40,812 bases of DNA, from the IMG/VR virus record IMGVR_UViG_2541047766_000005, one strand, 5' to 3'. Below are positions 7,873 through 12,123 of the stretch, piece after piece. The position numbers and the translations under genes are program-made. This DNA comes from a virus. Its lineage: Duplodnaviria > Heunggongvirae > Uroviricota > Caudoviricetes. The notes beneath the pieces are model-generated. The model was not told the origin of the DNA. It ran no database searches and worked only from the letters and a program-made list of their open reading frames with translations. The first letter of the stretch is position 1, and each line of letters opens with the position of its first letter.

Positions 7873-8241
7873 TCAGGCGGCTTTGATAGTCATATCATCT
7901 GAATCAAATATTCCAGATGTGTCGATATCGGTAATTCTTATTCCTTCGCTACCATCCATTGGAGGCCATCCTTCCTGACCATTTCCATCATTCCAGTCGA
8001 ACTCACACACAACACCATATGCATTTAAGTCGCTTGAAATTGCTATAAGCAGAGCATGTTGCGCTAGCATGATTAATACAGCATTTAATACAGAGCCGTG
8101 TTTTTTGAGTCTGTATTCAGAGTCTGACCAGAAATTATTAATCTGGTGAAGTTTTTCCTCTGTCATTACGTCATGGTCGATTTCAATTTCTATTGATGCT
8201 TTCCAGTCGTAATCAATGATGTATTTTTTGATGTTTGACAT
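7873..8241 (-). CDS. Ea10-like protein (DUF2528-type)
   Basis: 122-aa ORF, same length and position as lambda Ea10; a hairpin plus T-tract lies just upstream on the minus strand. Confidence 0.55.
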   Translation of the reverse strand: MSNIKKYIIDYDWKASIEIEIDHDVMTEEKLHQINNFWSDSEYRLKKHGSVLNAVLIMLAQHALLIAISSDLNAYGVVCEFDWNDGNGQEGWPPMDGSEGIRITDIDTSGIFDSDDMTIKAA

Positions 8242-8260
8242 CTGTTCATATCCTCATAGA

Positions 8261-8287
8261 TAAAAAATTGCCCTCACATTGGAGGGC
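8261..8287 (-). terminator. Intrinsic terminator within leftward early operon (tL-like)
   Basis: Minus-strand hairpin GCCCTC-CAATGT-GAGGGC followed by AATTTTTTA. Confidence 0.5.
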
Positions 8288-8423
8288 AAAGAAGATTTCC
8301 AATAATCAGAACAAGTCGGCTCCTGTTTAGTTACGAGCGACATTGCTCCGTGTATTCACTCGTTGGAATGAATACACAGTGCAGTATTTATTCTGTTGTT
8401 TATGCCAAAAATGAAGGCCACCA

Positions 8424-8624
8424 TCAGGCAGCCTTGTTGTTCTGTTTACCAAGTTCTCTGGCAATCATTGCCGTCGTTCGTATTGCCCATTTATCGACAT
8501 ATTTCCCATCTTCCATTACAGGAAACATTTCTTCAGGCTTAACCATGCATTCCGATTGCAGCTTGCATCCATTGCATCGTTTGAATTGTCCACACCATTG
8601 ATTTTTATCAATAGTCGTAGTCAT
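8424..8624 (-). CDS. ral: Restriction alleviation protein Ral
   Basis: 66-aa ORF MTTTIDKNQWCGQFKRCNGCKLQSEC..., matching lambda Ral in length and (from memory) sequence. Confidence 0.65.
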   Translation of the reverse strand: MTTTIDKNQWCGQFKRCNGCKLQSECMVKPEEMFPVMEDGKYVDKWAIRTTAMIARELGKQNNKAA

Positions 8625-8702
8625 ACGGATAGTCCTGGTATTGTTCCATCACATCCTGCGGATGCTCTTCGAACTCTTCAAATTCTTCTTCCATATCTCA
8701 CC

Positions 8703-8906
8703 TCAAATAAGTGGTTTGCTGCCTAATTTCATTTTCTGGCGACCAACACAAGTCACACCCATTTCACTGCGTGGCTTGCTGTAGTAAAGATTGTGCCTGT
8801 CTTTTAACCACATCAGGCTCGGTGGTTCTCGTGTACCCCTACAGCGAGAAATCGGATAAACTCTATTCACCCCTACAGAGAGCAAAAGAGAAACGCCGAT
8901 GAACAA
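8703..8906 (-). pseudogene. Fossil of a lambda-type N gene (only the C-terminal ~28 codons are N-like)
   Basis: ORF ends ...YYSKPRSEMGVTCVGRQKMKLGSKPLI, closely resembling the lambda N C-terminus (...YSKPGERGITCSGRQKIKGKSIPLI); upstream part has no N similarity and overlaps the SieB-like start. Confidence 0.45.
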
Positions 8907-9480
8907 CTCATGGTGGCAGGAACTAATGCATTTTTTCCTGCAAGGAATGACACTTAAACAGTTGATTCATATGCTAATCATCCTGATCATATTGATTATT
9001 GTTATGCCGGTAAGCGTAAAAGAATGGATAAACCTGCATAATCCAGAAATCCTTCCTCATTATTGGATGTATTACATCCTGTTGTTCTGCGTTAGCTATG
9101 TGCTTAACGGTGTAGTTAATTCCGCTTATCACGCTGTGACTGAAAGAATTGAGGTATCCGCTGCTCAGAAGCGCAAATCCAAAGAAGAAAAATATGTGCA
9201 AGATTTGTTTGATTCGTTAACTCTTGGAGAAAGAGCGTATTTGGCATTCGCTGTAGCCGCTAATAACCAGCTACAAACGGAAAAGGGAGCTCATGAATCA
9301 ATTTCATTGCTCAAAAAAGGCCTCCTCGTTCGAAGGCCTCCTGCTGTTGGATATCCTGATACCGACCGTTTTATTATCCCGGAAAGCTATAGACATGAGT
9401 GCTACATTAGGTTTGCCGGGAAGGCAGACAGCCTTATGGATGAACTTATCGCTCAGGATAAGCATGGCAAAAACAAGTAA
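8899..9480 (+). CDS. sieB: SieB-like superinfection exclusion membrane protein
   Basis: 193-aa ORF on the opposite strand inside the early-left operon between ral and N; two N-terminal hydrophobic helices; N-terminus MNNSWW... recalled as SieB-like. Confidence 0.6.
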   Translation: MNNSWWQELMHFFLQGMTLKQLIHMLIILIILIIVMPVSVKEWINLHNPEILPHYWMYYILLFCVSYVLNGVVNSAYHAVTERIEVSAAQKRKSKEEKYVQDLFDSLTLGERAYLAFAVAANNQLQTEKGAHESISLLKKGLLVRRPPAVGYPDTDRFIIPESYRHECYIRFAGKADSLMDELIAQDKHGKNK

Positions 9481-9496
9481 TTAGCAAATGAATTTA

Positions 9497-9769
9497 TCAT
9501 CTCGCTGTCAGTTGTTTTGATTTCCGGTAGCCTGCCGCGTAAAGAGCTACGTTTGGCAGGCAAATACTTCCACTGCGTTCATCTTCTTCCTTACAGCGAA
9601 GGCTTCCGAGTGATGCTGCTTTGTCTGCTCTGACGCAACCAGAGAGCTTTAGCGCAATCTTTCGCGCCAGTCGCTGTTCTTGCATTGCCTGTTCACGTTG
9701 AGCCTGTCTGCGTGCTCTGCGGCGATTTCTGGCGTTATCGTCAGCCAGATATGTAATGACTACTGTCAT
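9497..9769 (-). CDS. N-like transcription antiterminator (P22 gp24 type)
   Basis: 90-aa ORF with arginine-rich motif NARNRRRARRQAQ near the N-terminus and C-terminus LPNVALYAAGYRKSKQLTAR resembling P22 gp24; GGAGG SD; first gene downstream of nutL. Confidence 0.75.
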   Translation of the reverse strand: MTVVITYLADDNARNRRRARRQAQREQAMQEQRLARKIALKLSGCVRADKAASLGSLRCKEEDERSGSICLPNVALYAAGYRKSKQLTAR

Positions 9770-9877
9770 GTTGACCTCCGATGATTGACTTTGGCGGTGA
9801 CGCGCCGGGTGCTTATCTTCCGGTTGCCGTCGTGCAGCTGCACTTCACGTCACCCCAAAGCCAACTACTCTTTGGTT

Positions 9878-9917
9878 CCCGCATTTCGGCGGGACAATCC
9901 CATCAATGTTAAAGAGC
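9878..9917 (-). promoter_or_regulatory. nutL (boxA GCTCTTTAA and boxB hairpin CCCGCCGAAATGCGGG)
   Basis: On the leftward transcript, boxA-like GCTCTTTAACA then a 5-bp-stem hairpin; the same boxA and an identical boxB occur at 11547-11589 downstream of cro. Confidence 0.7.
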
Positions 9918-9965
9918 CTGCCAATCTGTTCCGTTTGGCTACCAGCGTCCTGCTGATGGCTAAAG

Positions 9966-10050
9966 AATACTGTAGGTATTTTATTGTGTAAATACCCAAG
10001 GTATTTATTTTTGGTGAGATAATGATAAGCAAATGAATACAAAGGATATT
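9966..10050 (-). promoter_or_regulatory. OL operators and pL region
   Basis: Three 15-bp sites AATACTGTAGGTATT (9966-9980), AATACCCAAGGTATT (9991-10005), AATACAAAGGATATT (10036-10050) sharing AATAC-N5-GTATT dyad symmetry with the OR sites. Confidence 0.65.
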
Positions 10051-10136
10051 TATTTTTTCGGTGTCTGCTTGTTCAGTGCTTTTTATGCGGGATATGTGAA
10101 GTGGATCCCGATAGCTATTGCTGCCGGGATTATGGG

Positions 10137-10505
10137 TTAGTCAGCGAAGGTTAAGACGAGAATTACCTTAATGATGTCTGCTACAACAGACACGGCCATA
10201 GATAAACCAAAGACAATCCAAGCCATAGAGATGTCTTCACTACCATCGTATAGAGTTCCGTAATCACTGGTGTAAGGCGTAAATGTCGCGCCTTGATACA
10301 ATAGGTATAAGCTTGATCCATAGAGGATAAATGCAGATATTCCTTGTATTGCCATGATCACCAGAATCATGAAACGAGCTGATCTATGCGCCCAAGCCTG
10401 GCTTATTTTTTCTGATAGAGATTTCGCAATAAAAGCATGCGCTAAGCCGTAAATTGTCGAGATTGCCAACATCCCAAAAAAGCTTGCTATAGCGGTTCCA
10501 ACCAT
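10137..10505 (-). CDS. Multi-pass membrane protein encoded immediately downstream of cI (rex-position gene)
   Basis: ORF with three predicted hydrophobic helices; probable ATG start at 10505 with AAGGGG SD (track ORF starts at TTG 10526 overlapping the cI stop). Confidence 0.6.
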   Translation of the reverse strand: MVGTAIASFFGMLAISTIYGLAHAFIAKSLSEKISQAWAHRSARFMILVIMAIQGISAFILYGSSLYLLYQGATFTPYTSDYGTLYDGSEDISMAWIVFGLSMAVSVVADIIKVILVLTFAD

Positions 10506-10522
10506 AAGCGCCCCTTGCGTGA

Positions 10523-11239
10523 TCAAACCAGCCTTAGTTTTGTCTCAATTGCAACGCCTATAATCTTGCAGTTTCCATTGATTGGCACGAGAGGCCATGC
10601 AGGGTTAAGTCCCTTGAGGTATTTATTTCCGCCGTCGATTATCAGCTTCTTGAATGTTGCTTCGTTAGAGTCAGAAAGTTTTGCTATGACCAAGCTGCCG
10701 TTGATCGCCTCCCTTCCGGTATCGAAAAGAACGAATGTTCCCTCTGGAATGCTTAACCCAACCGGTGCCGTCATTGAATCACCTTCCACTTTAAGCCAAA
10801 ACGCATTACCTTGAATATGCGCGTCAGACTCAAGCCAAACATCTATGTCTTTAATGGTGTATGGTTCGCATGCTTCACACCACGAGCCAGCCTGGATACT
10901 GCTTAACACCGGATACCTCTTTCCTGCTCTGTATTCCCCTGCATACCTTACGTTGGCATCGCTCTTAAGGCTTTCTGCCTGTTCTGCAACCTTGGCAGCA
11001 ATTGACTGGCTAAAATCAGCAATTGAGACTTGCAACAGTCGTGCAAAACCAGATGCAACCTCAACGTTTAGCGCGTTTCTGCCATTAAGATAATGCCCTA
11101 CCGCTCCTTGGGTGATACCCAGTTCATCAGCGATTGAGTATTGGGTTATTCCCAATTCTTTCTTTTTTGACTCATACAAAGCCTTAAGCCGCTTAGCGTC
11201 TTCGAGCTGTTCTGTCGTCAGTGATTTTTTATTTTCCAT
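10523..11239 (-). CDS. cI: CI-type prophage repressor (HTH N-terminal domain, LexA/S24-like C-terminal autocleavage domain)
   Basis: 238-aa ORF with lambda-CI-like architecture (QYSIADELGITQGAVGHYLNG helix-turn-helix; C-terminal VEGDSM...FKKL motif); divergent from cro across the operator region. Confidence 0.9.
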   Translation of the reverse strand: MENKKSLTTEQLEDAKRLKALYESKKKELGITQYSIADELGITQGAVGHYLNGRNALNVEVASGFARLLQVSIADFSQSIAAKVAEQAESLKSDANVRYAGEYRAGKRYPVLSSIQAGSWCEACEPYTIKDIDVWLESDAHIQGNAFWLKVEGDSMTAPVGLSIPEGTFVLFDTGREAINGSLVIAKLSDSNEATFKKLIIDGGNKYLKGLNPAWPLVPINGNCKIIGVAIETKLRLV

Positions 11240-11250
11240 AGCTTAATTCT

Positions 11251-11314
11251 AATAGCTAAGGTACTTAAACTAAAAATACCCTGAGTATTGATTGCTTTGA
11301 ATACCTGTAGTATT
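11251..11314. promoter_or_regulatory. OR operators with divergent pRM/pR
   Basis: Three 15-bp sites AATAGCTAAGGTACT (11251-11265), AATACCCTGAGTATT (11275-11289), AATACCTGTAGTATT (11300-11314), centres 24-25 bp apart, between cI and cro. Confidence 0.7.
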
Positions 11315-11345
11315 CTTTGTTCATGGTTAATAACGGAGAGTGCAT

Positions 11346-11540
11346 ATGATTCGAATGACACTTGCCGATTACGCCAAAATCCATGGACAGGCTAAAGCAG
11401 CCAGTGACTTTGGTGTAATCCAGTGCGCTATCAGCAAGGCCATTCTGGCAGGCCGTAACATTATGGTTACGGTAAAGCCTGATGGCAGTGTGATTGGAGA
11501 GGAAGTTCGTCCTTTCCCAAGCAACAAGAAAAACAAATAG
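11346..11540 (+). CDS. cro: Cro repressor
   Basis: [36 protein letters not shown]... resembles lambda Cro; GGAGAG SD 5 nt upstream of ATG 11346 (track ORF begins at GTG 11340). Confidence 0.85.
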
Positions 11541-11546
11541 TAACAC

Positions 11547-11589
11547 CGCTCTTTAACAGTCATGGTCCTCATTCCCGCCGAAATGCGGG
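11547..11589 (+). promoter_or_regulatory. nutR (boxA CGCTCTTTAA, boxB CCCGCCGAAATGCGGG)
   Basis: boxA 11547-11556 and hairpin 11574-11589 just downstream of cro; boxB identical to nutL. Confidence 0.7.
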
Positions 11590-11648
11590 AATACAACGCG
11601 CATCAGTTGGTGCGTATAACTTCTTATTTGTTAAGGAAATACTTACAT

Positions 11649-11927
11649 ATGCAACTTACAAGTACTCGCAAGAAAGCGAATGCAATTACAAGCAACATCC
11701 TGAATCGAATTGCTGTACGTGGTCAGCGAAAGGTTGCTGATGCATTAGGGATTAATGAATCGCAAATTTCGCGATGGAAAGACAGCTTTATCCCAAAGAT
11801 GGCCATGCTTCTGGCTGTGCTGGAGTGGGGTGTTGAAGACGAGGAATTGGCGGAACTGGCAAAGAAAGTAGCCAAGGTGCTGACAAAAGAAAAGCCTCAA
11901 GACTGCTGCAACAGTTTTGAGGCCTGA
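11649..11927 (+). CDS. cII: CII transcriptional activator
   Basis: 92-aa ORF from internal ATG; ...ALGINESQISRWKDSFIPKMAMLLAVLEWGV... closely resembles lambda CII; upstream track extension overlaps nutR and is rejected. Confidence 0.85.
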   Translation: MQLTSTRKKANAITSNILNRIAVRGQRKVADALGINESQISRWKDSFIPKMAMLLAVLEWGVEDEELAELAKKVAKVLTKEKPQDCCNSFEA

Positions 11928-11961
11928 TGTAGAAAGACTGGATCAATCCACAGGAGTAATT

Positions 11962-12123
11962 ATGACAAAACGTCGTAAGAAATACCAGGAAAAAGAAGAG
12001 ATTCGACACCCTGATTCACCTGAGGGATTAGTGGTAGCCGCAGCAAATAACAGGGCGTTCGCAGAGCGCCTTGTTGGTGTTTACAGACTAGCCAAAGCAG
12101 GAGTGAAACATGGGCGTCGTTAA
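11962..12123 (+). CDS. Small basic hypothetical protein between cII and O
   Basis: 53-aa ORF from ATG 11962 with AGGAG SD; track ORF starts earlier at 11917. Confidence 0.4.
   Translation: MTKRRKKYQEKEEIRHPDSPEGLVVAAANNRAFAERLVGVYRLAKAGVKHGRR

Follow-up and report, generated by a model that had tools for sequence, protein, structure and literature searches.

The gene at positions 8899-9480 of the stretch of DNA analysed here (40,812 nucleotides, IMG/VR record IMGVR_UViG_2541047766_000005; hereafter, the window) very probably belongs to a sieB-esc-sas module of a P22-like or lambdoid Escherichia coli prophage. An earlier note on this DNA had read the locus as a plus-strand SieB-like exclusion gene; sieB itself is confirmed, and the nested frame esc and the antisense RNA sas, both of which are integral to the working of the module, were missed. 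The window is a mosaic P22-like/lambdoid E. coli phage, with HK620, Kapi1, and HK140 among its relatives.

Genomic context

The gene and its neighbours are the following.

8424-8624, minus strand: ral (restriction alleviation), to the left of sieB in the pL operon (Pfam Ral, 162.5 bits; PHROG 1055)
8899-9480, plus strand: sieB coding sequence, 193 amino acids, P22-type (open reading frame; PF14163; PHROG 1301)
9497-9769, minus strand: N-type antiterminator, right neighbour (Pfam N_peptide, 60.3 bits; PHROG 271)
9992-9964, minus strand: candidate pL promoter, TTTACA-17-TATTCT (promoter scan)
9966-9981, 9991-10005, and 10036-10049, within 9964-10049, minus strand: three operator-like palindromes accompanying the candidate pL
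10523-11239, minus strand: cI-like repressor (Peptidase_S24 and HTH_3)

The open reading frame (ORF) at 8899-9480 (+) opens with ATG and codes for 193 amino acids (ORF list of the window). Judged by its profile matches, it is a real gene rather than a chance ORF, because its product matches Pfam SieB at 79.7 bits and PHROG 1301 over the full length at 1e-121. It lies between ral and the N-type antiterminator gene on the strand opposite pL, just as the earlier note had described, and the Ral (162.5 bits) and N_peptide (60.3 bits) matches identify the two flanking genes. The antiterminator has an arginine-rich N-terminus, and its gene (9497-9769, -) converges with sieB, the two stop codons being 16 nt apart.

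The candidate pL promoter overlaps operator-like palindromes of the form AATACnnnnGGTATT, a motif that reappears at 11275-11314, beyond the cI-like repressor gene, and repeat families D1, I1, I4, I6, and I8 are common to the pL region and to this region beside the cI-like gene (11275-11314). A pL-like promoter on the minus strand implies that leftward early transcription would run antisense through the sieB ORF. The promoter at 9992-9964 (-) and the palindromes near it therefore bear out the further claim that the gene is antisense to pL transcription.

Two ORFs of the same region were recorded separately. Directly downstream of the cI-like gene, in the position that rexAB has in lambda, a hydrophobic ORF of 129 amino acids (10137-10526, -) matches only phrog_6534 (unknown function), without a match in Pfam, PADLOC, or NCBIfam; it may be another lysogen-expressed gene. 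To the left of ral in the pL operon is an ORF of 122 amino acids (7873-8241, -) assigned to DUF2528/phrog_646, also of unknown function.

Family assignment

The product had been called a SieB-like exclusion protein, and both profile and pairwise comparisons agree: it matches PF14163 (SieB) at 79.7 bits against a cut-off of 26 (residues 24-147), PHROG 1301 covers residues 1-193 of 193 at 1.3e-121, and P22 SieB is 83.2% identical over residues 1-191 (E 3e-95). Under the same PF14163 model, lambda SieB scores 103.5 bits and P22 SieB 101.4 bits, and yet lambda SieB and the window protein share only ~20% identity in a pairwise BLASTP comparison that is not significant (E 0.58). The alignment with lambda and P22 SieB that the earlier note had proposed as a check is, consequently, positive for P22 (83%) and negative for lambda when the two proteins are compared directly (20%, E 0.58). 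Because of the 83% identity to P22 SieB and the non-significant comparison with lambda SieB, the window gene is, on its sequence, a P22-type and not a lambda-type sieB. At this level, P22-type and lambda SieB are linked only via the Pfam profile and a common upstream cassette, which is described below.

Proteins of the E. coli phages 2G7b, PhiR11_1, and ev207 are 98-99% identical to the window protein, and the SieB of VT1-Sakai is ~91% identical. Searching with tblastn at E <= 1e-5 gave no match below 60% identity except in one Klebsiella phage, and the BFVD viral fold library returned P22 SieB relatives only. Two other matches were dropped: that to the PADLOC 2TM-TIR model was sub-threshold (E 0.008) and driven by the hydrophobic region, and that to an NCBIfam 12-TM family (14.9 bits against a cut-off of 70) was likewise a hydrophobic-region match.

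As a point of nomenclature, the PHROG 1301 product name, ‘superinfection exclusion; inhibits SieB’, is put on sieB itself (NC_002371, NC_019710). This label is misleading, as it merges SieB with its own inhibitor, Esc.

The SieB protein

Two parts of the protein can be delimited.

8953-9123, plus strand: N-terminal membrane module with two predicted transmembrane (TM) helices, amino acids ~19-40 and ~52-75 (hydropathy, AlphaFold, invariant columns)
9211-9423, plus strand: C-terminal soluble domain, amino acids ~105-175, predicted to be winged-helix-like and the most variable part of the family

That the product is a membrane protein, as previously claimed, is upheld by two hydrophobic stretches at amino acids ~19-40 and ~52-75; the N-terminal hydrophobic helices of the SieB family are predicted here both as hydrophobic windows and as AlphaFold helices. 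In an alignment of 26 family members, the first ~75 residues are almost invariant, the TM helices being joined by a nearly invariant loop (KEWxNxxNPEIxPxxWMYY), and the C-terminal domain is highly variable. The AlphaFold model, built from 26 homologues (mean pLDDT 80), opens with a short N-terminal helix, followed by one at residues 19-35 and by another short one within the connecting loop; a long helix (56-105) then exits the membrane and leads to a compact C-terminal domain (pLDDT 90-95), for which winged-helix matches were obtained. Since the segment after helix 2 (KRKSKEEK) is basic and the connecting loop is acidic, the positive-inside rule would suggest that both termini are cytoplasmic.

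Given how little the 75 N-terminal residues differ within the family and how much the C-terminal domain does, we infer that the conserved membrane module is a fixed effector and the variable winged-helix-like domain a diversifying sensor. SieB may be a membrane-anchored winged-helix protein that uses its variable cytoplasmic part to recognise a nucleic acid or a protein of a phage. By analogy with P22, Esc would be SieB without its first 24 residues, which make up the N-terminal helix and the beginning of membrane helix 1, and may act via inactive mixed SieB oligomers.

A small inner-membrane protein of a prophage that has two TM helices and bears the name ‘superinfection exclusion’ could also be a true entry blocker acting at the membrane, like P22 SieA or T4 Imm, rather than an abortive system. 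The P22 literature, however, separates SieA, which blocks DNA entry, from SieB, with which infection starts and all macromolecular synthesis then stops in the middle of the lytic cycle (PMC10883804, PMC7380047), and a large, well-folded C-terminal domain that is predicted to be cytoplasmic fits the sensing of an intracellular event. We consider entry blocking very improbable for this protein and continue with abortive infection as the preferred reading; no description of the molecular trigger of SieB or of its killing mechanism was found in the literature searched.

Promoter, nested esc, and antisense sas

The record of P22 (BK000583) annotates a sieB promoter (1433-1463 in the locus stretch compared), an RNA start at 1470, sieB itself at 1501-2079, and a nested esc at 1573-2079, beginning 72 nt past the sieB start. 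All of these have counterparts in the window, as does the P22 antisense RNA sas, a 127-nt read cluster (Table 2 of PMC13397905).

8832-8862, plus strand: PsieB promoter, TGTACC-19-TAAACT (mapping from P22, relaxed hexamer scan)
8971-9480, plus strand: nested esc frame, Met25 to stop, 169 amino acids (same in-frame ATG as the esc of BK000583)
8778-8903, minus strand: sas antisense RNA region (identity to the P22 sas reads)

In the pairwise DNA alignment, the P22 sieB RNA start maps to A8869 (+), and the columns covering the promoter (8832-8862) and the start (8869) have zero mismatches to P22. A relaxed hexamer scan found the promoter as TGTACC-19-TAAACT ending at 8862. A stricter consensus scan of 8600-9900 for promoters and terminators did not report it, and PsieB is for that reason taken to be a weak promoter. 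Two plus-strand sites from scanning 8600-9900 (8947-8975 and 9348-9377) were set aside: their number equals chance expectation, and the first would start transcripts past the esc ATG. The presence of the P22 promoter and RNA start without a mismatch supports, at the sequence level, the expression of sieB from its own promoter in the lysogen, which the earlier note had expected from the arrangement of the genes. The in-frame ATG of esc is at 8971 (codon 25), in the same position as in P22, and Met25 is retained in at least 90% of the 26 family members aligned.

The sas region (8903-8778, -) is identical to the P22 sas reads at 122 of 126 positions. It spans the sieB start codon, the ribosome-binding region, the 5' leader, and the promoter and ends 68 nt before the esc ATG. 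This geometry, in which the sieB start is covered and the esc ATG is spared, fits the published model of a sas/Esc switch, in which, as summarised in later papers, sas blocks SieB synthesis and Esc synthesis continues (Ranade and Poteete 1993, via PMC12197685 and PMC7067206).

Neither the stricter scan of 8600-9900 nor a relaxed hexamer scan of the minus strand gave a consensus sas promoter, and sas may have its own promoter or may be processed from pL transcripts. The sole minus-strand site of the relaxed scan, TTTAAG-17-AAAAAT ending at 8930, was dropped because P22 has AAAAAC at the counterpart (read by eye from the alignment), the final T being lost. By minimum free energy, the sas region folds no more stably than shuffled sequences do (z = -0.76), and an Rfam scan of 8000-12000 at E <= 1 returned only a chance snoRNA match, with no family for sas or for the cassette.

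The upstream cassette and its cargo

The ~110-nt non-coding cassette that precedes sieB (8778-8898) has changed far less than the protein. HK140, 2G7b, VT1-Sakai, and one lambda-like phage, the left neighbours of which differ, carry it almost without change, and it can still be recognised in loci of Yersinia, Phytobacter, and Arsenophonus in which SieB is only 44-56% identical. Lambda has the cassette from the hairpins (see below) through the -10 element, followed by unrelated coding DNA. The sieB promoter of lambda was first recognised through its homology with that of P22, and the lambda match up to the -10 element agrees with this origin.

Scanning viral contigs with an 18-nt core motif of the cassette yielded at least 120 loci. 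Among the listed loci that were readable, the ORF behind the cassette encodes P22-type SieB in 68, lambda-type SieB in 26, other PF14163 variants with predicted membrane helices in ~20, and a phrog_1244 protein in 6. The latter is a soluble coiled-coil protein of 155-189 amino acids with two CxxC pairs and unknown function, for which there is no Pfam match. Independently of the reading of sieB, the phrog_1244 proteins in the sieB slot (6 of ~120 listed IMG/VR loci) are candidates for an alternative exclusion gene.

The locus also has the appearance of a mosaic. Near-identity among the phages begins at a boundary around 8794, at TGCCTGTCTTTTAACC, and continues rightwards; to the left of ~8794 are ral in P22, HK140, and this window, and ea10/ssb in VT1-Sakai and Lambda_2E9. 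Within sieB, identity to P22 falls past about codon 85.

Possible structure of the cassette RNA

When read on the minus strand, the cassette can form two sets of paired elements.

8795-8827, minus strand: stems S1 and S2, conserved 3' structure of the sas-sense RNA (anchored arm extraction)
8826-8883, minus strand: two hairpins with the common loop CUGUAGGGGU (arm/loop table across loci)

Stem S1 (AACCAC/GUGGUU) pairs 8822-8827 with 8806-8811 (-), and stem S2 (GCCUG/CAGGC), interleaved with S1, pairs 8814-8818 with 8795-8799 (-); the third loop is A-rich. The two stems would either form together, as an H-type pseudoknot, or be hairpins that alternate with each other. Hairpin 2 is at 8826-8850 and hairpin 1 at 8860-8883 (-), the pair corresponding to a direct repeat, ACCCCTACAG, at 8835-8844 and 8869-8878, and the loop CUGUAGGGGU is the complement of the bases with which the sieB mRNA begins.

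A structure computed by RNAalifold on a MAFFT alignment was discarded, as loop-length variation misaligns the 3' arms, and anchored arm extraction was used in its place. The S1/S2 layout fits 41 of 43 distinct sequences (from >120 loci). Compensatory changes are seen in S1 (CCAC/GUGG to CCUC/GAGG), in S2 (GCCUG/CAGGC to GCCGGG/CCCGGC), and, as one type (G-C to U-A), in hairpin 2. In an alignment restricted to the arms, 95% of cells pair and the observed covariation score was reached by none of 500 shuffles, with the qualification that the stem arms were picked by a pairing search and that register shifts inflate the apparent covariation of S1. Counts of G-U against C-A wobbles, which bear on the strand, were 3 versus 0 for S2 and uninformative for S1 and hairpin 2; the assignment of the stems to the minus strand is weakly supported.

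As part of the leftward transcript, the cassette may represent a hitherto undescribed structured RNA, with two CUGUAGGGGU-loop hairpins and, after them, an H-type pseudoknot. It may also be the counterpart of the tL1 terminator region of lambda, as we presume from the sizes of lambda transcripts. The lambda sRNA PreS/LPR1 was dropped as an identity for the cassette, since it lies at tL2a between ea10 and ral. The literature search returned nothing relevant that joins sieB with a pseudoknot or with tL1.

From this angle, the main product of the locus could be a leftward structured RNA (sas, or a pL terminator or processing element that may be the equivalent of lambda tL1), with SieB as secondary cargo. 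Such a reading draws on the better conservation of the ~110-nt cassette than of the protein, on its occurrence with P22-type sieB, lambda-type sieB, and unrelated cargo alike, and on the compensatory changes in its stems. Part of that conservation, however, could be explained by the promoter PsieB, which the cassette also contains, and the 75 N-terminal residues of SieB are themselves almost invariant. Moreover, P22 genetic evidence assigns the exclusion phenotype to the protein, the wobble-pair asymmetry speaks only weakly for the strand, and the tL1 counterpart is presumed from the sizes of lambda transcripts. We regard a locus built primarily around the RNA as unlikely, and SieB as the principal product is retained in what follows.

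A joint proposal, in which the cassette is both a structured RNA and a portable unit for exclusion cargo and SieB is a membrane-anchored winged-helix recogniser, is offered tentatively and is, taken as a whole, rather doubtful.

Occurrence

The sieB gene described here is already known and routinely annotated, being a classical lambdoid gene. It occurs unchanged in hundreds of E. coli prophages, and hundreds of genomes already have this copy annotated. The exact 193-amino-acid protein is found on 431 public contigs, where it is named "superinfection exclusion protein B". The 703-bp stretch 8778-9480, which includes the sas region, is present as 100% identical DNA in complete E. coli genomes, where the PGAP label is "super-infection exclusion protein B", and at least 80% of it is present in 577 of 5426 complete genomes. 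Separately, a 4.2-kb contig binned as a ‘Segatella copri’ metagenome-assembled genome (JAJXBQ010000254.1) has a 99% identical sieB; it most probably stems from an enterobacterial phage and was placed in that bin by mistake.

These numbers bear on whether the ORF might be an inactive relic that is SieB-like but no longer expressed or functional in the prophage. The weakness of PsieB would be in keeping with such decay. Against it, the frame is intact and of full length, the promoter, the RNA start, the esc start, and the sas region are conserved, identical DNA occurs in many complete genomes (with 577 of 5426 having at least 80%), and the non-coding cassette is retained even in distant relatives. 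The intact frame, the conserved regulatory parts, the identical genomes, and the kept cassette point to purifying selection, and we give the relic scarcely any credence; a functional sieB is assumed below.

Proposed mechanism and comparison with known systems

Both abortive infection and the Esc/sas switch are transferred to this locus from the P22 literature. Such a transfer, from a phage of Salmonella to a prophage of E. coli, would rest on 83% identity, most of the substitutions being C-terminal, and nothing in the window contradicts it. In the lysogen, pL would be repressed and the weak PsieB (8832-8862) would yield an mRNA starting at ~8869, the AUG at 8899 of which would be translated into SieB, an inner-membrane protein with two TM helices. 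Upon superinfection by a heteroimmune lambdoid phage that lacks a suitable escape function, SieB would abort the infection. Internal initiation at Met25 (8971) would produce Esc, a truncated SieB that inhibits SieB. During lytic growth, leftward transcription would yield sas (8903-8778), which would pair with the ribosome-binding region and start codon of sieB and not with the esc start; this pairing would switch translation from SieB to Esc. By these two routes, Esc and sas, the resident phage type would escape.

The closest known system is the sieB/esc/sas locus of P22 (Ranade and Poteete 1993; BK000583), which has an 83% identical protein, the same placement of sieB with ral and the N homologue (gene 24) as flanking genes on the other strand, a promoter and RNA start without a mismatch, the nested Met25 start, and sas at 122 of 126 positions. 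It differs in its host (Salmonella versus E. coli here), in protein length (192 versus 193 amino acids here), in ~17% of the residues, nearly all of them in the C-terminal domain and tail, and in the DNA that adjoins the cassette on its left, which is unlike that of the window. Lambda SieB (NP_597779) shares PF14163, the position between ral and N, and the upstream cassette; in contrast, the protein is only ~20% identical and the DNA downstream of the -10 element, including the leader with which sas would pair, is unrelated.

Two other exclusion systems resemble SieB in a more general way. Lambda RexA/RexB is likewise prophage-expressed and membrane-associated and, by analogy, also halts macromolecular synthesis in superinfected cells; it has no sequence relationship to SieB, consists of two proteins instead of one, and is encoded beside cI, a slot that an unrelated 129-amino-acid membrane ORF (10137-10526) occupies in the window. 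P22 SieA is also an inner-membrane exclusion protein encoded by a prophage, but what it blocks is the injection of DNA and not later development (PMC10883804), and its family is unrelated to that of SieB.

Implications

The practical value of the analysis is a correct annotation of the locus as a P22-type sieB with esc and sas. By analogy with P22, a prophage that carries this sieB is predicted to exclude some heteroimmune phages. The cassette structure, the swapping of cargo, and the winged-helix-like domain are separate leads that leave the verdict on sieB unaffected. If the cassette is indeed a portable unit, then lambdoid phages swap cargo behind it, with P22-type SieB, lambda-type SieB, PF14163 variants, and the coiled-coil/zinc-ribbon phrog_1244 protein taking turns in the same place. 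The membrane module with its variable winged-helix-like domain and the reused cassette could, finally, give a handle on how SieB senses infection.
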